From positions 1-36,622 of the IMG/VR virus record IMGVR_UViG_2531839531_000013: 36,622 bases of DNA; one strand, written 5' to 3'. Positions 40 through 35,177 of this stretch are shown here, in pieces. Within the stretch, counting starts at the first letter, position 1. The number at the start of each line of letters is the position of its first letter. A model generated the notes under the pieces. That model worked only from the letters and a program-made list of their open reading frames with translations, made no database searches and was not told the origin of the DNA. This DNA comes from a virus (lineage: Duplodnaviria > Heunggongvirae > Uroviricota > Caudoviricetes). The position numbers were made by a program, and so were the translations under genes.

Positions 40-402
40 GGGGCTGATTCTGGATTCGACGGGATTTGCGAAACCCAAGGTGCATGCCGAGGGGCGGTTG
101 GCCTCGTAAAAAGCCGCAAAAAATAGTCGCAAACGACGAAAACTACGCTTTAGCAGCTTAATAACCTGCTTAGAGCCCTCTCTCCCTAGCCTCCGCTCTT
201 AGGACGGGGATCAAGAGAGGTCAAACCCAAAAGAGATCGCGTGGAAGCCCTGCCTGGGGTTGAAGCGTTAAAACTTAATCAGGCTAGTTTGTTAGTGGCG
301 TGTCCGTCCGCAGCTGGCAAGCGAATGTAAAGACTGACTAAGCATGTAGTACCGAGGATGTAGGAATTTCGGACGCGGGTTCAACTCCCGCCAGCTCCAC
401 CA
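40..402 (+). ncRNA. ssrA: tmRNA (SsrA), complete 363 nt
   Basis: Begins GGGGCTGATTCTGGATTCGAC and ends GGTTCAACTCCCGCCAGCTCCACCA (tRNA-Ala-like acceptor and T arm). Internal tag ORF GCAAACGACGAAAACTACGCTTTAGCAGCTTAA = ANDENYALAA* at 129-161. Recognised as the E. coli-type ssrA. Confidence 0.97.
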
Positions 403-510: not shown

Positions 511-1284
511 TTACAACTTAAAGAGTTTCGCTTGCCCTGGATTAACAGCTTCGACGTAGTTTTTGACCCCTATTCTGTGCGGCTCATAATTGCTTGAATA
601 GAAATCAATCAGGAAGTCACTCATTTTCTGAGATGTGACTTTCATAACTCCCTTACTCAAAGTTAAATTAAACACGCTAATCTTTGACGATGGTGCCTGA
701 GTTTTACTCATGTTGGCTTGATAACCAGATTTACGCATTGCCACTAGTGCTTCGTCGTAAGCCGCTTGTAATTGGGCCAAATCGTTTGACGAGATGATCA
801 CATCATCCATAAACACACTTAGCTTGAGATCATGATGTTTGTTCAATCGGCGTAGTAAGCTACCAAAATAACTTTTATCTAAGCAGAGGGTTGCAAGTAT
901 TGGAGATTGAACAAAACCAAAAGGGAGGACATGCTTATGTGGACTATGGGACAAGTTTCTTACAGTTGAAAATGTTGAGATTTCCCGCGCTTGAGAATAG
1001 GTGAAGTAGCTCTTTAGATCACGGGTGATACGACTACGGCTCGTTGACTGAAAAAATTGTTTAATATCAACAACGGCAAAAAAATCACTTTTTAAGTGTA
1101 ATCTGGCAGCTTTAAGATGCCCACCAGTTCTTAGATGGTAAAAATAGAGTGGCGGAATCCACTTGTTTCTGACATCCTGAAGTATCTTCCCTCCGACTTT
1201 ACGTGCCTCAACGCTTGGGACATAAACCCAAACCCCGGGCTTAATCTCAAATTTATCTTCCCACCTTTGAACTTCTATTGTCAT
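511..1284 (-). CDS. Compact reverse transcriptase-like protein (257 aa), cargo
   Basis: RT palm motifs occur in the correct order: FFAVVDIKQFFQS (motif A, Asp73), LPFGFVQSPILATL (motif B'), and FMDD (motif C, residues 158-161, codons 802-813). There is a retron-like AARLH just upstream of motif A. ATG at 1282-1284, with no own SD; the start lies inside the upstream ORF. Confidence 0.8.
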   Translation of the reverse strand: MTIEVQRWEDKFEIKPGVWVYVPSVEARKVGGKILQDVRNKWIPPLYFYHLRTGGHLKAARLHLKSDFFAVVDIKQFFQSTSRSRITRDLKSYFTYSQAREISTFSTVRNLSHSPHKHVLPFGFVQSPILATLCLDKSYFGSLLRRLNKHHDLKLSVFMDDVIISSNDLAQLQAAYDEALVAMRKSGYQANMSKTQAPSSKISVFNLTLSKGVMKVTSQKMSDFLIDFYSSNYEPHRIGVKNYVEAVNPGQAKLFKL

Positions 1285-22479: not shown

Positions 22480-23513
22480 TGGGAAAGAGTAAGAAGAACC
22501 GCGCTGCGTCGACGAAACAGATCCAGCATAAAAGCCAGACTTCAGCCGAAGCATTCAGCTTCGGTGATCCCGTTCCTGTTCTGGACCGCCGCGAACTGCT
22601 GGACTATGTGGAATGCGTACAGATGGATCGTTGGTACGAGCCGCCTGTGAGTTTCGACGGACTGGCGCGAACCTTCCGCGCCGCCGTGCATCACAGCTCA
22701 CCGATTGCAGTGAAGTGCAACATTCTGACCAGCACCTACATCCCTCACCCGCTGCTCAGCCAGCAGGCTTTTTCGCGTTTTGTACAGGACTATCTGGTTT
22801 TTGGTAACGCCTACCTGGAGAAACGCACGAACCGCTTCGGTGAAGTTATCGCCCTTGAGCCTGCACTGGCAAAATACACCCGACGCGGGTTAGACCTGGA
22901 TACCTACTGGTTTGTGCAATACGGCATGACTACGCAGCCGTATCAGTTCACGAAAGGCAACATTTTTCATCTGATGGAACCGGACATCAACCAGGAGATC
23001 TACGGCCTGCCTGGTTATCTTTCTGCCATTCCGTCAGCTCTGCTCAACGAGTCCGCCACGCTGTTCCGCCGCAAGTATTACATTAACGGCAGTCATGCAG
23101 GCTTCATCATGTACATGACCGATGCAGCGCAGAACCAGGAGGATGTGAACAACCTCCGCAATGCGATGAAAAGCGCCAAAGGTCCTGGTAACTTCCGTAA
23201 CCTGTTTATGTACTCGCCTAACGGTAAAAAGGACGGGCTTCAGATTATCCCGTTGTCAGAAGTGGCGGCGAAGGATGAGTTCCTGAATATCAAGAACGTG
23301 AGCCGGGACGACATGATGGCGGCGCATCGTGTGCCGCCACAAATGATGGGGATAATGCCTAATAATGTCGGGGGGTTTGGGGATGTGGAGAAGGCCAGTC
23401 GCGTATTTGTACGTAATGAATTAACGCCCTTGCAAAAAAGGCTACAAGAGCTGAACGACTGGCTGGGCGAAGAAGTGATTAAATTTACGCCCTATATTCT
23501 TTCAGAAGAATAA
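22476..23513 (+). CDS. Q: Portal protein gpQ
   Basis: 345 aa, ATGA-coupled to P, at the P2 gpQ position next to cos. Confidence 0.93.
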   Translation: MMGKSKKNRAASTKQIQHKSQTSAEAFSFGDPVPVLDRRELLDYVECVQMDRWYEPPVSFDGLARTFRAAVHHSSPIAVKCNILTSTYIPHPLLSQQAFSRFVQDYLVFGNAYLEKRTNRFGEVIALEPALAKYTRRGLDLDTYWFVQYGMTTQPYQFTKGNIFHLMEPDINQEIYGLPGYLSAIPSALLNESATLFRRKYYINGSHAGFIMYMTDAAQNQEDVNNLRNAMKSAKGPGNFRNLFMYSPNGKKDGLQIIPLSEVAAKDEFLNIKNVSRDDMMAAHRVPPQMMGIMPNNVGGFGDVEKASRVFVRNELTPLQKRLQELNDWLGEEVIKFTPYILSEE

Positions 23514-23521
23514 TTCCGAAC

Positions 23522-24220
23522 TTATTTGTTTCTTCTTTGTTCACGCCTTGTCTTGGCTTCGATAAGGCGTTGAGGTTCAGTGTAAAGCCGTTCTAAAAAA
23601 AGATAGGTAAAATCTTCAAGATCCTCAGCAGCAGCTTTATCCAAAATACCTTCATGCGCTCCATCATTTCCGTCATCTTTAACGCATTCAGCTAGTTCCC
23701 TTAAAGCTTCAGGCAGTAGATGATTATCAAATAACCACTCCATTCTTAACCCTAGGCTTCTCCTTATTTTTTGCGCAGGCCCTTGCTCCCCATCAGGAAG
23801 AAGTCCTTTTGTGGCATAATCAAGGCAAAGCCTAAACATGGTTGCTGCTGCATTATAACAACCTATAGCCAAACATTTCGCCCCTTCCTCATATGCACTA
23901 TTGATATGCTCAGGTAAGAACTCTGGTGGCTCCTCTACTGCTAAGTCTGCCGGTGATATAGGCCTAACAACCTCTGCAACTTCCTTTAAGCCGAATATTC
24001 CACTTTCCCAATTATAGCCATCTAAAGTTTTATTTTTCGTTAAAGGTCTGCAAAGAAACATTGTCGTTTTATGACACTCTCGGCAAACACAATAGACCTC
24101 GTATTCGTATGTTTTACCCCCGCCCAATGCATTGTAAACCCTAGTGCAATTCAGCCCATTAACATCAAACGCTATTTTTTGTGATCCACATCGTGGACAG
24201 TCATCCACTAACATAACCAT
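23522..24220 (-). CDS. Zinc-ribbon + DUF4145-like domain protein (cargo, 232 aa)
   Basis: The N-terminus CPRCGS...x34...CVCRECHK has four Cys. The C-terminal LGLRMEWLFDNHLLPEALRELAECVKDDGNDGAHEG...AEDLEDFTYLFLERLY matches my memory of the DUF4145 (PF13643) signature. The gene is AT-rich and has a GGGAGGAG SD. Confidence 0.7.
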   Translation of the reverse strand: MVMLVDDCPRCGSQKIAFDVNGLNCTRVYNALGGGKTYEYEVYCVCRECHKTTMFLCRPLTKNKTLDGYNWESGIFGLKEVAEVVRPISPADLAVEEPPEFLPEHINSAYEEGAKCLAIGCYNAAATMFRLCLDYATKGLLPDGEQGPAQKIRRSLGLRMEWLFDNHLLPEALRELAECVKDDGNDGAHEGILDKAAAEDLEDFTYLFLERLYTEPQRLIEAKTRREQRRNK

Positions 24221-24288
24221 GTCAATTACTCCTCCCTATGAAAAAAATGAGTTGAAAAATTGAATATTCACGACTTAAAAAGCTAGCC

Positions 24289-24317
24289 TATTTAACACCA
24301 TAATTTCATTAATTCAA
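24289..24317 (-). promoter_or_regulatory. Putative sigma70 promoter of the ZnR-DUF4145 gene
   Basis: On the minus strand: TTGAAT (24317-24312), a 17-nt spacer, then TAAATA (24294-24289). It begins 14 bp from the cos core. Confidence 0.45.
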
Positions 24318-24330
24318 CCATGAGCGCGCG

Positions 24331-24349
24331 CTCGTATCCCCGCCACGCC
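24331..24349. other. Probable cos cohesive-end site
   Basis: The reverse complement GGCGTGGCGGGGATACGAG shares its first 13 nt with the 19-nt 186 cos end as I remember it (GGCGTGGCGGGGAAAGCAT; P2 GGCGAGGCGGGGAAAGCAC). It sits in a GC-rich patch at the expected position beyond Q. Confidence 0.55.
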
Positions 24350-24390
24350 TGCCCGCTTTGTGTAGTGGTTTTCATGCACCTGCATGACAT

Positions 24391-24418
24391 AAGCAAAAGC
24401 CCGCCAGCTCTGGCGGGC
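24391..24418 (-). terminator. Rho-independent terminator downstream of the HNH gene
   Basis: On the minus strand: GCCCGCCAG-ag-CTGGCGGGC followed by TTTTGCTT. Confidence 0.6.
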
Positions 24419-24531
24419 ATCAGCAAAAACGATCCTCAAACGATCATGCGATTTCATGCGGCATAGACATGCGTTGGCAAAAATGTACGAAATACTCAGC
24501 TTATAGGAAATGGTCTTTTTCCAACCTCCAG

Positions 24532-25251
24532 TTAGCCAAAGCAGAAACCAATATTGCAATTTGAAACTCCACAGTTGTGAAATTGATGTGGACCTACTCT
24601 TAGCTTGTGTTCGTCTCCTACAATCCGAGTCCCCTTAACCAACATATCTAATCTTTCCACAATCAATCTTTCAGGCGCATCAACTTTAATAATTAAACGA
24701 GGACCTTTCCTTTTTTCTATAATAGTTATTCTAGGACCGACAACCTGAACATCCCAATGCCTTGCACTACAAACCCACTCATTCTTAATTAATTCAAGAT
24801 TAACAATACCTTGACTATCGTAAAATTTACCCGAAATAAGAAAAGCATTATTTTCTTTTTCAATGGTTAACAATGGCTCATTTTGAAACATTATTGGTAC
24901 AGTACAGGATTCAAACGTCGCACCACCAAATATTATTGTTGGATGCCTATCAGAAAAGTCCAATATATCGGCCACATTCCCTTTTTGTAAGGCTGCAGGA
25001 GATTCCATTGCTTTAATTATTTTCTCTTTAGAGTAAAGACGTTTCGTTACTTTCGCATGGCACGTAGGACAAAGTAGTGCTATTGCATTTGGAGAGTGCT
25101 CCTTTGCATCAGCGTATGTGGGAATTACATGCTCATACTCAACAATGGGAGAAGCACAAACAACGCAACCGAAGCCACAGCGCTGCCTTACCTCCAGTTT
25201 TACAGGTTCAGGAATTGTTCTAGATAACCCATGCTTGTTAATAGTTGTCAT
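24532..25251 (-). CDS. HNH endonuclease domain protein with unknown C-terminal domain (cargo, 239 aa)
   Basis: CGFGCVVC...VEYEHVIP...HSPNAIALLCPTCHAK carries the HNH/zinc motifs. The C-terminal ~150 aa are beta-rich with no motif I recognise. The gene is AT-rich and occupies the P2 old/tin position. Confidence 0.8.
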   Translation of the reverse strand: MTTINKHGLSRTIPEPVKLEVRQRCGFGCVVCASPIVEYEHVIPTYADAKEHSPNAIALLCPTCHAKVTKRLYSKEKIIKAMESPAALQKGNVADILDFSDRHPTIIFGGATFESCTVPIMFQNEPLLTIEKENNAFLISGKFYDSQGIVNLELIKNEWVCSARHWDVQVVGPRITIIEKRKGPRLIIKVDAPERLIVERLDMLVKGTRIVGDEHKLRVGPHQFHNCGVSNCNIGFCFG

Positions 25252-25373
25252 AACCTTACCTTAAAACTTCGAGAAACCTTTTATATATTGATACTATATC
25301 AACTAACGCCTCGCACAGCTCGTTGTTCAACCTTGCTGACGCCAGAAGCAAGTTCAGACGCCAGCAACGTTTC

Positions 25374-25607
25374 TTAATGCAGCCAGCTGTCGTCTTCCCA
25401 CACCTTCTGCATAATTTTCATCACTTGCTTCCTTTCTTCGTCCAGTTGCAGTCCGGTCAGTTCCACACCGTTAGAGCTACCTTTGCGGATGCGAATTACC
25501 GTTTTTGGATATAGGGGGCGCAGATTGCGGTAAAGCTCGGATTCAAGGGCGTCCAGGGTAGACTGGCTAATCTTCTGCTCTTTATCGATCATTATTTCAA
25601 TGCGCAT
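25374..25607 (-). CDS. DinI-family protein (77 aa)
   Basis: MRIEIMIDKEQKISQSTLDALESELYRNL...KIMQKVWEDDSWLH aligns with E. coli DinI (MRIEVTIAK...DALAGELSRR...ILQETWESADDWF). GAGGTG SD. Confidence 0.8.
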   Translation of the reverse strand: MRIEIMIDKEQKISQSTLDALESELYRNLRPLYPKTVIRIRKGSSNGVELTGLQLDEERKQVMKIMQKVWEDDSWLH

Positions 25608-25617
25608 AAAAGTCACC

Positions 25618-25806
25618 TCAGCTGATGACATCCATTGAGCGGTTGTATTCGTGGGTTCTGATTTTTGCCATGAGTTCATCTGTCAGTTCAGAAACCCACT
25701 GCAAAGCCAGCCCCTTCTCTTCATCACTACACTCACTAGCCGCTACAAGTTTAAGAAAAAAATCAATGCGCTGGAGCTTCAAAGACTCCAAAAAATAGTC
25801 CTGCAT
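25618..25806 (-). CDS. Small SOS-controlled protein (62 aa), possible Tum-like antirepressor N-part
   Basis: AGGAGG lies 5 nt upstream of ATG 25806. It is the first gene after the LexA box and sits 10 nt upstream of the DinI-like gene. Confidence 0.5.
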   Translation of the reverse strand: MQDYFLESLKLQRIDFFLKLVAASECSDEEKGLALQWVSELTDELMAKIRTHEYNRSMDVIS

Positions 25807-25847
25807 CTTTCCTCCTATGACACCACAAGCAATACTGTATGTATAAC

Positions 25848-25867
25848 CACTGTTTATATTTACAGTA
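25848..25867. promoter_or_regulatory. LexA (SOS) box
   Basis: caCTGTttatatttACAGta is a perfect CTGT-N8-ACAG, about 45 bp upstream of ATG 25806 in an AT-rich promoter region. Confidence 0.8.
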
Positions 25868-25959
25868 TATAATAATCTTACTGATGTAAAACGTTTTTTT
25901 ACGTTCATCAGCCTGATATGCCTGGTATTATTAAGAGCACGAATTGTTAACCCGCGTAA

Positions 25960-28374
25960 TTAATACAGGTTTCGCCACTTATCATCTTCCTGCAAACGCT
26001 GGTTCCGATAGAAGATACGCAGGCCTGCTCCTGACGGAATACTGCCGCCGCGAAGGAGTAAATCGACCTCTTTCTCGCTGCCATCAAATCCTCTGGACTT
26101 CAGTTCATAGACGAGCTGCTGTCGCTGATGGTCTGTAATTCGCTGTTTGTAGTCTTTACGCCGTTTCGGTTTCACCAGGCGTAACCTTGCAGCCAGTTCC
26201 CGGCGCTCTTTTTTGCTCATACTGTGCAGGTAATCATGCAACTCCTTGTCATCCATGCGGGTAATGTCCGTCCTGGTATCCCCATCAGCTGATTTGTCTT
26301 TCCCTTGTTGGTTCAAATTTTCAGCAAGGGGACAGTTATTGCCACGAGTCCAAGGGGCGCAAGCGCCCTGGTCGGCTGCCGCCTCCTGAACGTCAACGGC
26401 TTTACGAACCATTTTCCACTTCACTGCATGAGTGCAGATCTTGCCCTCTGCAATGGGTGACCAGATGCCATAAATACGAATACCATGATCGCCATAGGCG
26501 GTCGGCTCTTCGTTAATTTCATAAGCAGTTCTGATGAGGTGATATTTACGGGGAACCAGTACACCTCCCTGCTTCATGATATAGGTGGCAAAACAACCAG
26601 CATCAGCAGCAGCCAGAATGGCATCAAGGCGCGGGTTATCCAGTACCGGCACACCTGCTTTTTTGTCACCCTGCTGCCTTGCCGCCTGACCAGCCAGCAA
26701 TCGCAGTTCACGGTAAGCCTGACGCCCCGGAATGCCAAAGAAGCGGAATTGCTGAACACGATGCAAAGACGCCCAGGCATTCACGTATTCAGCATTATCA
26801 CGCAGAGATTTACCCGTTTCCTTGCTGATCTCGCCAGCCAGACCACGCCCGTCAATGTTCTTGCTGATATATTTCGCGATGTAGCTTGTCGGCGTTCCTT
26901 TGCGCGGGTTAATCAACTCAGACTTAAAGCGTGGTCCCGTGTTATTCCCCAGCTCCTCGCGGTCTTCACGAATGGCAAACTTACGCAACAAAGCAGTAAT
27001 GGCGCGGCGATCTTTTTTGCGCATAAAACACAACAGGTGCCAGTGAACTGTACCGTCATGATGCGGCTCAGCCACCCGCACGCCATACCAGCGCAATCCG
27101 GCTTTGTGCATAGCCTTACGAAATGCAGCAAACATGCCGACCAGATAATCGCTGCTTTGTCTTACTGTCGCGTTGGTCCAGGTCGGGTTTGGCCTGCCGT
27201 TATTTAGCGTGGAATGGAAACGTGACGGACAGGTGATGGTGTAGAAAACGGCGCAGTCACCACGCATTTCCGCGATAAGCTCCAGACCTTTAACGCAGGC
27301 CATCATCTCATTGCGGCGATGCGCCGGGTTGCTGCTGCTGGCGTTTACCACATCCTCCATGTCCAGCATGTCGCCGTCTTCGTTCACCAGTTCATGAGAA
27401 CGGAAAAACTCCAGAGACTTACGGCGCTGCTCACGTTTATGCATCACGGCTTCATAGCTGACATAGGGAGATGCTTTTTTGCTGACCAGACAGACAGCAC
27501 GCAACTGCTCTTCCCGCCATTCGCAACGCATCTTCCATAATTTCCGATACCACCAGTCGGCGCACAGCATACGCGCCAGCGAACCCGGAATGAGTTCATA
27601 GGGCACAGGTTTGCGGCGGTTTCTTTTCCGGCGGAGTTGCTCAAACGCAGGCGGTATGACATCCAGTCGCAGGGTTTCTGCTGCCACCTTTTCCCATGTC
27701 TTGCGGATTTCTTCCGGCTTAACATCATCGGAGGCGTACAAATCACCACAAGCGGCATCAAGACACATGCTCATATGCGCAGCGACAAGGGTGGACAGGC
27801 GTTTCACCTGATCCTGACTCATTTCAGGCAGGATCAGCAGACCGTCCAGCCCTTCATGGCTTGCCATAAAACGAAAAGATGCAGATAGCTGGCTGTCGCG
27901 TACATGCTCCAGTCGTTCCAGGCATGGCTTAATCGTCTCACGCAAATAGCGGGAATAAGCCTTTGGCCTGCCCAGGTTGCTGAAGTATTTAATACGTTGC
28001 ATCAGCGGCTTGCTGATATGGGAAGGCTGGGCGTTGACATCCGCCAGAATGACCATATCCGGATTAAAACGCTGCTGCTCATGCGCCAGCTTTGCCCGGC
28101 TAATTAGCTTATCCTGCTCCATTTCGCGCTGGACAGGATCACGGGATTCATTAAAGAAATAACGCTCCCAGACCTGATCACTCAGTGCCTCGCGGCGCAG
28201 TTGTTCCTGCTCGTTATCGGCAGCGTACAGAGTGATCAGGTTTGAAAGCGCAGAAACCGGCGCAACTTCCGCCGGGTCCAGATAAGGGTTAATGGCCTTT
28301 TTCGGGCTGTTCCATGAGAATGCTGCGGCAGCCTCGTTAAAGCCGCAGCAGTTGTTCATATCGGCATGACTCAT
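25960..28374 (-). CDS. A: Replication initiation endonuclease gpA (HUH rolling-circle type)
   Basis: 804 aa with the HUH motif TVHWHLLCF and the Tyr motif [12 protein letters not shown]. Confidence 0.9.
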
Positions 28375-31806: not shown

Positions 31807-32823
31807 ATGACTGTCAGAAAACAGCCAAACGGCAAATGGTTGTGTGAGTGCTATCCCAATGGACGCAATGGCAAGCGCGTGCGTAAGCAATTTGCTACGA
31901 AAGGAGAAGCCATTGCTTTTGAAAGCTTCACAATGGAAGAAGTGAATAAAAAACCGTGGCTAGGTGAAAAGGATGATCGGCGACGCCTATCAGAATTAAT
32001 TGAGCTTTGGTATTCCCTGTATGGCCAGACACTCGCAGACCCCAAGCGCCTCATGGCGAAACTTAGAATTATCTGTAATGGTCTAGGCGACCCCATCGCC
32101 TCAGAACTGACAGCCGGTGACTTTACAAAATACCGCGAAGCACGGTTAAAAGGCGACGTTCGTAACGAAGACGGCACACTAATGTCGCCAGTAAAACCAC
32201 GCACGGTGAATCTTGAGCAACGTAACCTATCATCGGTTTTCGGCACATTGAAAAAACTAGGCCACTGGTCAGCACCAAATCCTCTCGCCGGGCTGCCAAC
32301 ATTTAAAATCGCTGAGGGGGAACTGGCGTTCCTGACCTCGGAAGAAATTAAACGTCTGCTAGATGCCTGCGCTGATTCTCAAAACCCCAGTCTGCTTTTG
32401 ATTGCAAAAATATGCCTGGCCACCGGCGCACGCTGGAGTGAAGCCGAAAACCTGCAGGGCCATCAGTTATCTAAATACCGCATCACTTATACCAAGACGA
32501 AGGGCAAGAAAAACCGCACCGTGCCGATATCTCAAGATCTGTATGACGAACTCCCCAAGAACAGAGGGAAGCTATTCACCCCGTGCAGAAAAGCCTTTGA
32601 ACGGGCAGTAAAGCGAGCTGGCATCGAGCTGCCAGAGGGCCAATGCACTCACGTGCTACGTCATACATTCGCCAGTCATTTTATGATGAATGGCGGAAAC
32701 ATACTGGTCCTACGCGATATTCTGGGCCATGCCGATATAAAAATGACGATGATTTACGCCCACTTTTCGCCGGATCATCTTGAAGATGCAGTTACTAAAA
32801 ACCCTTTATGCAACTTAAGATAG
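31807..32823 (+). CDS. int: Tyrosine integrase (P2/186 family)
   Basis: 338 aa with ATGARWSEA (Arg), HVLRHTFASH (HxxR) and LGHADIKMTMIYAH (His/Tyr). Confidence 0.9.
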   Translation: MTVRKQPNGKWLCECYPNGRNGKRVRKQFATKGEAIAFESFTMEEVNKKPWLGEKDDRRRLSELIELWYSLYGQTLADPKRLMAKLRIICNGLGDPIASELTAGDFTKYREARLKGDVRNEDGTLMSPVKPRTVNLEQRNLSSVFGTLKKLGHWSAPNPLAGLPTFKIAEGELAFLTSEEIKRLLDACADSQNPSLLLIAKICLATGARWSEAENLQGHQLSKYRITYTKTKGKKNRTVPISQDLYDELPKNRGKLFTPCRKAFERAVKRAGIELPEGQCTHVLRHTFASHFMMNGGNILVLRDILGHADIKMTMIYAHFSPDHLEDAVTKNPLCNLR

Positions 32824-33201: not shown

Positions 33202-34935
33202 CTACTCAAGAAGATATTCTAACTCATCTTTTATCGGGATAACTTGCTCATAAAGTCGGTGATATGACTTCCCAATTGCGCCTCTGAATTGTATTAACTT
33301 TGGTGGCTTGTTACCTATATTAATAATATGGTCTTGAGCTATACCTGGGTAGGGATCAATAAATACAATTTCAGATATACCTAACTGATAAGCTTTTTTC
33401 GCACACAGCTCACAGGGACTGGCAGTTGTATATAACCTCCCCCCCTGAACGCCAATGCCACCATATTTTGCAAGTTGTAAAAATGCGTTTTCCTCAGCAT
33501 GTAATGCACGTGTATGAACTTGATTACCTTTTTTATCTTTATCAAGATCATTATGTATATCTTTAAAACAATAAGATAAGTTCCTGCCTCTATAAATATC
33601 ACCAGTTTTATCTATCGCCCTAAAATTTAATAGTTTCTCATTAGCTTTAATTCTGAAAGAACTATTATTTCTCTCATAATGACTGTACACTTTTTCATCA
33701 AAGTCGTTCATTAGGCCATCTAGCGATCTCATAGAGCAAGGAATCTGACCGTTGGCGACATCATTCCAACCCACTGATTTTATTGAATTTTCACCATCAG
33801 TTACTACAGCTCCCACCTGTCTAGATATACAACCAGAGTTTAATTTTACCGTATACGCAACTTGCATAACCCTTTCCATTGCAGTAGGTGTTATCAGACC
33901 AGGATGCTTCATCAGTGCGATGTACCACGCTAATTGTGCTTTTAAAATATTGTCATTATCAAATTCATTTTTTGGGTTAAAAATGTGTATATCTGATAGT
34001 TCAATGCATTTAGTTACATTTGGATTAGTGAGATGTTTGTAAGAGTTATCACCTTTACCTGACTCTACAGAATCTATTTCCTCTATCTGCTTTTCAGAAA
34101 ACTTATGTAGTTTCCGCAAATAGTTTGTTCGATGTTCATCTGGGGCATTTATTGACATTAAATGAAATGCAGAATATCTATCCTTAAAAAATTTTGCTTC
34201 ATATGGATTTCTAATAGCATCTATGACAATTAATGCGTTATCTCTTTTGCTTTTTCTTATTAATTTAATAACCCTATTAATAGTTTCCGGCAAATGAAAA
34301 ACAGATTTAGGTATAAACTCTTTATCTTCAAAATCGACTTCAATACGCCCACGGCGTCTAATTGACTTACCTGCTAACTGATAGACTGAAACATATAAAT
34401 TTGAGTTTATCGCATTTAGTTCAGCTTTGAATTCCTTAGTAAATTTTCTAACTAACCTCAAAATTGATATAAATTTATTAATCGTTTTTTCATTAAGCTT
34501 CAATTCACTATTATGATCAAGCAAATTCTCAATTACATTTTTAAATCTTGTTAAAATGAGATTATCTGAAAATACACCAAAAGTTAATACATTATCTAAA
34601 TGCTCTTTACTGATAGATTTATTAGATGATAGAATAAACTCAGAAGCTTCTTCAACTGTTAACATCAAAAGATACGCTGAGATTAGGTCACTCACCTTAA
34701 TTGAGTAAAAATTTTCCCAGTGATTTTCTGCGAATTTTTTAACTATATTATAACGATGGACATCCAATCCCTTGTAAAAACCCTGTAATTTACTTACATC
34801 AGGGAAGACTGTTTTTTCGTTTTCAAGAATATTAGCTGTTGTTGTGCAACCAGAACCAGTTCGACCTGTCAAACCGACTAAAATAAACTGCCCATTTTCA
34901 AGGAAAAGCTCACTAACGAATTTTTTTTCTTTCAT
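33202..34935 (-). CDS. P-loop kinase-like + cytidine/dCMP deaminase fusion (dCTP-deaminase type anti-phage protein)
   Basis: N-terminal Walker A GLTGRTGSGCTT. C-terminal zinc-deaminase motifs RQVGAVV, HAEENA and PCELCAKK. The region is very AT-rich (for example, 34441-34500 has 11 G/C in 60 nt). ATG 34935 is preferred over GTG 34938. Confidence 0.85.
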   Translation of the reverse strand: MKEKKFVSELFLENGQFILVGLTGRTGSGCTTTANILENEKTVFPDVSKLQGFYKGLDVHRYNIVKKFAENHWENFYSIKVSDLISAYLLMLTVEEASEFILSSNKSISKEHLDNVLTFGVFSDNLILTRFKNVIENLLDHNSELKLNEKTINKFISILRLVRKFTKEFKAELNAINSNLYVSVYQLAGKSIRRRGRIEVDFEDKEFIPKSVFHLPETINRVIKLIRKSKRDNALIVIDAIRNPYEAKFFKDRYSAFHLMSINAPDEHRTNYLRKLHKFSEKQIEEIDSVESGKGDNSYKHLTNPNVTKCIELSDIHIFNPKNEFDNDNILKAQLAWYIALMKHPGLITPTAMERVMQVAYTVKLNSGCISRQVGAVVTDGENSIKSVGWNDVANGQIPCSMRSLDGLMNDFDEKVYSHYERNNSSFRIKANEKLLNFRAIDKTGDIYRGRNLSYCFKDIHNDLDKDKKGNQVHTRALHAEENAFLQLAKYGGIGVQGGRLYTTASPCELCAKKAYQLGISEIVFIDPYPGIAQDHIINIGNKPPKLIQFRGAIGKSYHRLYEQVIPIKDELEYLLE

Positions 34936-35017
34936 CACGTCCCACTTATGAATGTAAGAATATTCAACATATTAATTATAATTTATTAACTCATTTTGTT
35001 CTAGATACTTGATGTAA

Positions 35018-35130: not shown

Positions 35131-35177
35131 ATGTAGGAATTTCGGACGCGGGTTCAACTCCCGCCAGCTCCACCAAA
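35131..35177. repeat. attR core of the 186-like prophage, and also the ssrA-derived junction of the downstream intA island
   Basis: A 47-bp copy of the ssrA 3' end, identical to 358-404. Confidence 0.92.

Follow-up and report, generated by a model that had tools for sequence, protein, structure and literature searches.

In phage P2, the slot between gpA/orf91 and cos carries old and tin, non-essential, swappable and AT-rich cargo genes that have a promoter of their own and are read in the direction leading away from cos. Old, a protein composed of an ATPase and a TOPRIM domain, is a nuclease acting against other phages; Tin is unrelated. Here we describe the gene that occupies the same slot in a P2-like prophage of Escherichia coli, contained in IMG/VR record IMGVR_UViG_2531839531_000013 (the whole stretch analysed, 36,622 nucleotides, is referred to as the window). 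The gene encodes a 239-residue protein, WP_000207842.1, with an N-terminal HNH nuclease domain and a C-terminal all-beta domain. We propose that it may well be a one-gene 'moron', an autonomous cargo of the prophage whose product would serve as a single-protein defence nuclease against phages or other mobile genetic elements. It resembles old and tin in position and in being apparently non-essential, swappable and AT-rich, and Old in being a predicted nuclease, but it has no sequence or domain relationship to either protein and is transcribed towards cos, with the same orientation as gpA.

The region between gpA and the portal gene has been described as the main defence hotspot of P2 elements (bioRxiv 10.64898/2026.02.27.708500). 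According to the same study, 19% of P2 elements hold only unknown genes in this hotspot, and six of eight unknown loci of P4 that were tested were protective (10.64898/2026.02.27.708500). Unknown cargo in the P2 hotspot is expected rather than surprising; the HNH gene is nevertheless a good and cheap experimental candidate.

Several other described systems share parts of this architecture. Cap5 of the cyclic-oligonucleotide-based anti-phage signalling system (CBASS) joins an HNH to a SAVED domain, and only its HNH part aligns to the protein studied here; neither a SAVED or other cyclic-nucleotide sensor domain nor a neighbouring CD-NTase gene was found, and no neighbour is conserved. In the type IV enzymes EcoKMcrA, ScoMcrA, TagI and VcaM4I, the HNH domain is C-terminal and stands behind a recognisable reader domain, whereas the protein studied here has it at the N-terminus, and the domain that follows resembles no reader fold; no modified-DNA reader (SRA, PUA-like, McrA-N, SBD and similar) was detected. 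RAZR, the renamed PD-T7-4, is likewise a single protein of mobile elements in which a zinc-binding module is joined to a nuclease (PMC13017515). Its nuclease is an RNase of the HEPN type, in contrast to the HNH DNase fold found here, and the two proteins are not homologous. A RAZR-like gene lies 311 bp from the HNH gene, in the adjacent slot, which is bounded by cos and the portal gene; the two assort independently. The HK97 gp74-type packaging proteins, finally, are also phage-encoded HNH folds with genes near cos, but the HNH gene described here is not shared by all phages closely related to its own, does not adjoin the terminase genes, encodes an additional domain of about 150 residues and appears dispensable from its distribution.

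The HNH protein and its family

The N-terminal part of the protein had been taken for an HNH nuclease from the sequence alone, and this assignment was borne out. Residues 29-71 match the Pfam family HNH (PF01844) with an E-value of 2.4e-5 (24.8 bits, cutoff 21.4), the domain adopts a beta-beta-alpha-metal fold that superposes on solved HNH domains, and the RefSeq entry for the identical protein, annotated in NZ_CM125675.1, reads 'HNH endonuclease'. Across an alignment of 62 homologues, the zinc ligands C29, C32 and C61 never vary, and 61 of the sequences have a cysteine at C64. The general-base residue H41, which is preceded by E or D, and H52 are also invariant, and position 65 is occupied by His (48 of 62) or Asn (14 of 62), which corresponds to the usual HNH/HNN alternation; the middle 'N' position (55) is variable. 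As the catalytic and zinc-binding residues are invariant or nearly so, the nuclease looks catalytically intact and active. The start codon (ATG) of the open reading frame (ORF) has AAGGTAAGG just upstream.

An AlphaFold2 model of the 239-residue protein, based on the alignment of 62 homologues, was obtained with a pLDDT of 94.5 and a pTM of 0.86. It consists of an alpha/beta HNH module (residues ~1-90) followed by 17 beta-strands (residues 92-238), and the packing of the two domains against each other is confident at this pTM. Within the beta domain, N157, W166, D167 and M203 are invariant and W159 is a tryptophan in 61 of 62 homologues. The median isoelectric point is 9.0 for the HNH half and 5.5 for the beta half, so that a basic nuclease domain is combined with a mildly acidic partner domain. 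Searches of Pfam, NCBIfam and PADLOC with the beta domain gave zero matches, and its profile found nothing among the PDB sequences, even at E<=10. The beta domain thus is without a solved structural relative or a sequence-family match, in agreement with the sequence-only reading, which had described the C-terminal part as beta-rich and unlike anything recognised. In the literature, we found no paper that names WP_000207842.

The protein belongs to a large family. It matches PHROG 6544 ('unknown function') over its full length (E 2.5e-111, residues 1-238 against positions 1-239 of the 248-position profile), and a word-indexed search returned 269 relatives, nearly all of 240-270 residues and aligned end to end. 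When the profile of the beta domain was compared with 1.84 billion cluster representatives, 1904 clusters (defined at 50% identity) passed a threshold of E<=1e-3, of which 1008 also reached E<=1e-10. In the top 150 of these matches, the full-length proteins have the domain from about residue 85, and in those full-length members whose sequences were read, the same HNH domain precedes it; short matches begin at an internal Met and resemble truncated gene calls. A search aimed at other architectures yielded no beta domain that follows anything but an HNH domain of the same type. A minority of members, from metagenomes, carry additional C-terminal TPR, SEC-C or CxxCxxCC tails (P0101, P0175, P0187, P0220). 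The family occurs in Proteobacteria, Cyanobacteria, Bacteroidota, Chloroflexota, Planctomycetota, Nitrospirota and Saccharibacteria as well as in two archaeal metagenome-assembled genomes.

Two cargo slots flanking cos

The window is a segment of the E. coli chromosome with a complete P2-like prophage integrated at ssrA, whose limits were set from the ssrA gene and the distant repeat of its 3' end (Table 1). Positions 23400-26000 are 100% identical to NZ_CM125675.1. The cos region was located by comparison with phage Cartapus, bases 1-59 of which are annotated 'putative cos site'. It contains the 19-mer GGCGTGGCGGGGATACGAG at 24331-24349, and P2 cosL together with the bases after it agrees with the window sequence at 24 of 32 positions. 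The genes around it are arranged in the order DinI/gpA, HNH gene, cos, DUF4145 gene and portal gene, with the DinI-family gene being the last backbone gene ahead of the HNH slot. This order, with DinI/gpA on one side and cos on the other, confirms that the HNH gene occupies the slot that holds old and tin in P2. The earlier description of the gene as lying right next to cos is correct as far as distance is concerned, since the gene ends about 150 bp from cos, and has to be qualified in that cos is positioned between the HNH and the DUF4145 genes and not directly by the portal gene. Because cos separates these two genes, the 'hotspot' between gpA and the portal gene consists of two slots, one on either side of cos, which assort independently.

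Blastn comparisons with sister prophages carrying other cargo showed that homology stops at 24472 and restarts at 25302/25303. The variable unit is therefore 24473-25301, an 829-bp cassette with a single ORF inside. The AT-richness of the gene that had been noted from the sequence is real, with a GC content of 0.383 compared to 0.551 in the structural genes. Two small elements that had been assigned to the gene fared less well. The hairpin at 24399-24418, whose T-tract extends to about 24391, is kept in other prophages that carry other cargo or an orthologue (L002, L003, L093); as it is situated within the flank conserved across prophages with other cargo, this terminator belongs to the slot and not to the cassette, and is common to all cargo variants rather than the gene's own. 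The palindrome in the upstream region is indeed present. However, the window contains nine perfect 6-3-6 palindromes including this one, which is about the number expected by chance, and its second arm is not conserved in an 86%-identical orthologue from Citrobacter. On these grounds, the palindrome was rejected as an operator and does not stand as a feature of the gene.

The HNH cassette was found in 3 of 5426 complete E. coli genomes, while the surrounding 2.6-kb region was matched in 1261 of them; the cassette is thus lacking in over 99% of the genomes with a match to the region. A lambdoid paralogue occurs in 82 of the 5426 genomes. Phage Cartapus agrees with the prophage in cos, the DUF4145 gene, the portal and the terminase, and two hypothetical genes replace the HNH gene. 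Alternative cargos of the HNH slot, seen in E. coli prophages besides this one and in phage Cartapus, are a pair of genes for 280- and 71-residue proteins and a pair for 203- and 86-residue proteins (L002 2068-3125 and L003 2111-3031, respectively); Pfam and PADLOC searches with both pairs gave no match. The HNH gene has the properties of hotspot cargo in its position between gpA and cos, its atypical composition and its replacement in sister prophages by genes unrelated to it.

A comparison of the cos-proximal slot in related prophages, which the sequence-only reading had called for, revealed the alternation of unrelated cargo described above and also orthologues (53-86% identity) in the same slot of P2-like prophages of Citrobacter, Cronobacter and Hafnia. 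In the HNH-carrying prophages of these genera, the portal-side slot holds a RES-domain gene, a reverse transcriptase gene, an unknown 533-aa gene or a pair of AAA_15/21 ATPase genes. A P2-like element of Pseudomonas luteola has a 43%-identical homologue just 3' of the portal gene, after a RelE/XRE pair. Relatives at 40-42% identity are located in the nin regions of lambdoid phages, with the replication genes on one side and NinE/RusA/Q on the other. The best 80 IMG/VR contigs comprised 44 lambdoid, 13 P2-like and 23 unclassified ones. A relative on an Acinetobacter plasmid lies among toxin-antitoxin and AAA_15/21 ATPase genes. In all four Acinetobacter contexts examined, a 119-aa ORF follows the HNH homologue (L005 6784-7143 on an A. 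lwoffii plasmid; L006-L008). This ORF has no family match and is not found in other genera, and could be either a lineage-specific partner or just linked cargo.

No conserved neighbour gene emerged from 83 loci (80 genome loci together with L001, L004 and L005), in which the biggest neighbour cluster comprised five loci. A dedicated immunity or partner gene was ruled out on these grounds, the cassette containing one ORF and no neighbour cluster exceeding 5 of 83 loci.

Candidate roles of the nuclease

These findings suggest a role in defence. The gene forms a dispensable and horizontally shuffled one-gene cassette, its product combines an intact HNH domain with a conserved domain lacking known relatives, and neither an immunity gene nor a partner gene accompanies it; from this combination we infer a nuclease that would defend its host on its own. 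The position in the P2 old/tin hotspot, the sharp boundaries of the cassette, its repeated occurrence in the same slot, the location of relatives in other accessory sites, the sporadic distribution in E. coli, the intergenic gap upstream of the gene and the presence of other defence-family loci in the prophage point in the same direction. As judged by its distribution, the gene is not needed by the phage. Judged by location and architecture, an anti-phage function would be the most likely one.

A DNase that travels without an immunity protein would need to be harmless to its host. We envisage that the acidic beta domain acts as a sensor or gate that would keep the basic HNH domain inactive until it meets a phage-derived cue, which may be a phage protein or a state induced by infection. 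The released HNH domain would then cut DNA and halt the infection, probably abortively. The cluster formed by N157, W159, W166 and D167 is a candidate site for a ligand or an interface. As the beta domain is mildly acidic and the inter-domain packing is confident, a regulatory or sensor role is favoured over DNA reading.

A number of points weigh against this proposal. No defence model of PADLOC-DB v2.0.0 matched the protein, and the matches below threshold concern the HNH region only (mREase_IV, E 0.0095; Effector, E 0.035). For the beta domain, a sensor role is purely hypothetical. A scan for sigma-70 consensus sequences upstream of the gene revealed no convincing promoter, and in every phage context the gene has the direction of the upstream early/replication operon; a role in the lytic cycle is thus possible, and expression in the lysogen is only putative. 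Outside prophages, there is no clear defence-island signal, because the neighbourhoods in 43 diverse genomes, surveyed with two genes per side and without a control set, are heterogeneous and include housekeeping genes, integrases in at most 4 of 43 loci and no more than a handful of PADLOC matches.

No PADLOC v2 profile names the protein as part of a known defence family, and the main text of DefensePredictor mentions HNH in passing only. Possibly, the protein is the founding member of an unnamed and widespread defence family of about 1900 clusters in bacteria and some archaea, which in enterobacteria resides mainly in P2-like and lambdoid prophages. Its members would unite in one polypeptide an HNH DNase and a sensor of a fold unseen in the PDB, and a phage component would activate them directly, with no partner protein involved. 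The HNH module and the logic of placing effector and sensor in one protein are familiar, whereas the C-terminal domain is uncharacterised, and so are the entire family and its role. Should the protein prove protective, a compact single-gene immune nuclease of 239 residues would be added to the catalogue, its regulatory domain without structural precedent would constitute a new sensor fold, and escape mutants would provide a handle on what this fold recognises. If it is not, the family still represents a large group (~1900 clusters) of uncharacterised nucleases of temperate phages. Independently of its function, the locus shows the P2 'hotspot' as two slots around cos, with the HNH gene in one and a RAZR-like gene in the other.

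Instead of sensing a phage cue, the beta domain might recognise foreign DNA by a modified base, an unusual structure or a similar feature and guide the HNH domain there in the manner of type IV restriction, which would require neither an immunity gene nor a trigger. EcoKMcrA, ScoMcrA, TagI and VcaM4I rank with the proteins structurally most similar to the HNH domain, the top PADLOC match, although weak, is the mREase_IV hit mentioned above, the gene is solitary, partnerless and sporadic, and the invariant Trp, Asn and Asp residues could form a pocket for a flipped base. However, the similarity of the HNH domain is generic, with Cap5 and IscB scoring as high as or higher than McrA, and a median isoelectric point of 5.5 is unusual for a DNA reader. 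We therefore regard restriction of this type as unlikely.

The nuclease may also benefit the phage during lytic growth, by degrading host or competitor DNA, by stimulating recombination as the HNH protein Ref of P1 does, or by acting against satellites. The orientation of the gene along the early/replication operon in all P2-like and lambdoid contexts would fit such a role, as would the lack of a clear promoter of its own in the consensus scan and the location of homologues in lambdoid nin regions, which also house recombination genes. Against this stand the rarity of the gene among close phage relatives (3 of 5426 genomes) and its absence from the related phage Cartapus, the many members of the family that are chromosomal or plasmid-borne with no phage genes nearby, and the AT-rich intergenic gap of at least 88 nt upstream of the gene in every phage context examined, which leaves no translational coupling to the operon. 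Taken together, a lytic function appears rather improbable.

Free-standing HNH homing genes are common in phages, and a homing endonuclease that cuts cassette-free genomes and is copied in during repair, with the beta domain recognising the target, would account for a single-gene mobile unit with sharp junctions between conserved flanks and for the patchy distribution of the family over very distant taxa. Yet a Pfam scan (E<=0.1) detected no NUMOD, IENR/IENR1, AP2 or helix-turn-helix module, and the all-beta C-terminal domain is not basic. The very low frequency of the cassette (3 of 5426 genomes, compared to 1261 with a match to the slot region) gives no sign of drive, the many unrelated cargos that alternate in the slot fit general hotspot recombination, and the insertion contexts in 80 genomes share nothing. 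Homing is accordingly quite improbable.

The sequence-only reading had itself raised the alternative that the protein helps terminase to cut cos, as HNH proteins do in HK97-like phages, and the gene does end about 150 bp from cos; this is very hard to sustain and effectively refuted, because only three genomes carry the gene against 1261 that match the region and Cartapus has other cargo beside a 98.7%-identical cos and the same portal/terminase arrangement, while the lambdoid homologues in the nin region are distant from the terminase genes, the protein is double the size of packaging HNH proteins owing to its extra 150-aa domain, and cos, a cargo gene and the portal gene lie between the HNH gene and the terminase genes.

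Other accessory genes of the prophage

The coordinates of the HNH locus, the remaining accessory genes and the prophage landmarks are collected in Table 1. The other three accessory loci of the prophage, a reverse transcriptase gene, a PD-T7-4-like gene and a dCTP deaminase gene, all match known defence families.

Table 1 Features of the HNH locus and its prophage in the 36,622-nucleotide window
Feature	Position	Strand	Details
tmRNA gene (ssrA)	40-402		
attL and attR	358-404 and 35131-35177		perfect 47-nt direct repeat of ssrA 3' end, 34.8 kb apart
Reverse transcriptase gene	511-1284	-	257 aa, low GC; Pfam RVT_1 E 1.8e-21; just inside attL, next to ssrA
Zn-ribbon + DUF4145 gene	23522-24220	-	232 aa; cos-to-portal slot; Pfam DUF4145 E 4.5e-7
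cos region	about 24323-24381	-	98.7% identity to phage Cartapus bases 1-152
Intrinsic terminator-like hairpin	24391-24418	-	GCCCGCCAGAGCTGGCGGGC then TTTTGCTT
Swappable one-gene cassette	24473-25301	-	50 bp upstream + ORF + 59 bp downstream; GC 0.376
Cassette-free or alternative junction sequences			GGCGTTAG / GTGCATGTCTATGCC
HNH + beta-domain ORF	24532-25251	-	239 aa; WP_000207842.1
All-beta domain without known relative	24535-24981	-	C-terminal, residues ~91-239
HNH (beta-beta-alpha-metal) nuclease domain, Cys4 zinc site	24982-25251	-	N-terminal, residues ~1-90
Palindrome TTGATActaTATCAA	25288-25302	.	upstream cassette edge; probably not functional
DinI-family gene	25374-25607	-	Pfam DinI E 1.3e-22; RefSeq coordinates; conserved upstream neighbour
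gpA replication endonuclease	25960-28374	-	backbone boundary of hotspot
dCTP-deaminase-type defence gene	33202-34938	-	578 aa; PADLOC dCTPase E 2.9e-145; Pfam dCMP_cyt_deam_1

The protein encoded in the slot between cos and the portal gene combines an N-terminal CxxC...CxxC zinc ribbon with a C-terminal DUF4145 domain and matches PADLOC PD-T7-4 (E 1.2e-6) and PHROG 1305. RAZR has the same architecture (PMC13017515). A comparison with PDB sequences gave no match, the protein being too divergent from RAZR, and its membership is thus putative. The DUF4145 gene is present in several of the 1261 E. coli genomes with a match to this region and is common beside other cargo. A two-gene system formed by the HNH and DUF4145 genes was considered and rejected: cos intervenes between them, the DUF4145 gene is common with other cargo, and HNH orthologues pair with RES, reverse transcriptase or AAA_15/21 genes.

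The best PADLOC match of the reverse transcriptase was the retron-type RT_VI (E 7.8e-18), and the protein is short for a retron reverse transcriptase. Rfam showed no non-coding RNA at this locus; msr/msd and an effector gene were not specifically sought. The dCTP deaminase gene is part of a segment with a GC content of 30-34%, located between the integrase gene (31807-32823) and attR. The integrase gene is positioned at the end of the prophage that is distant from the intact ssrA gene.
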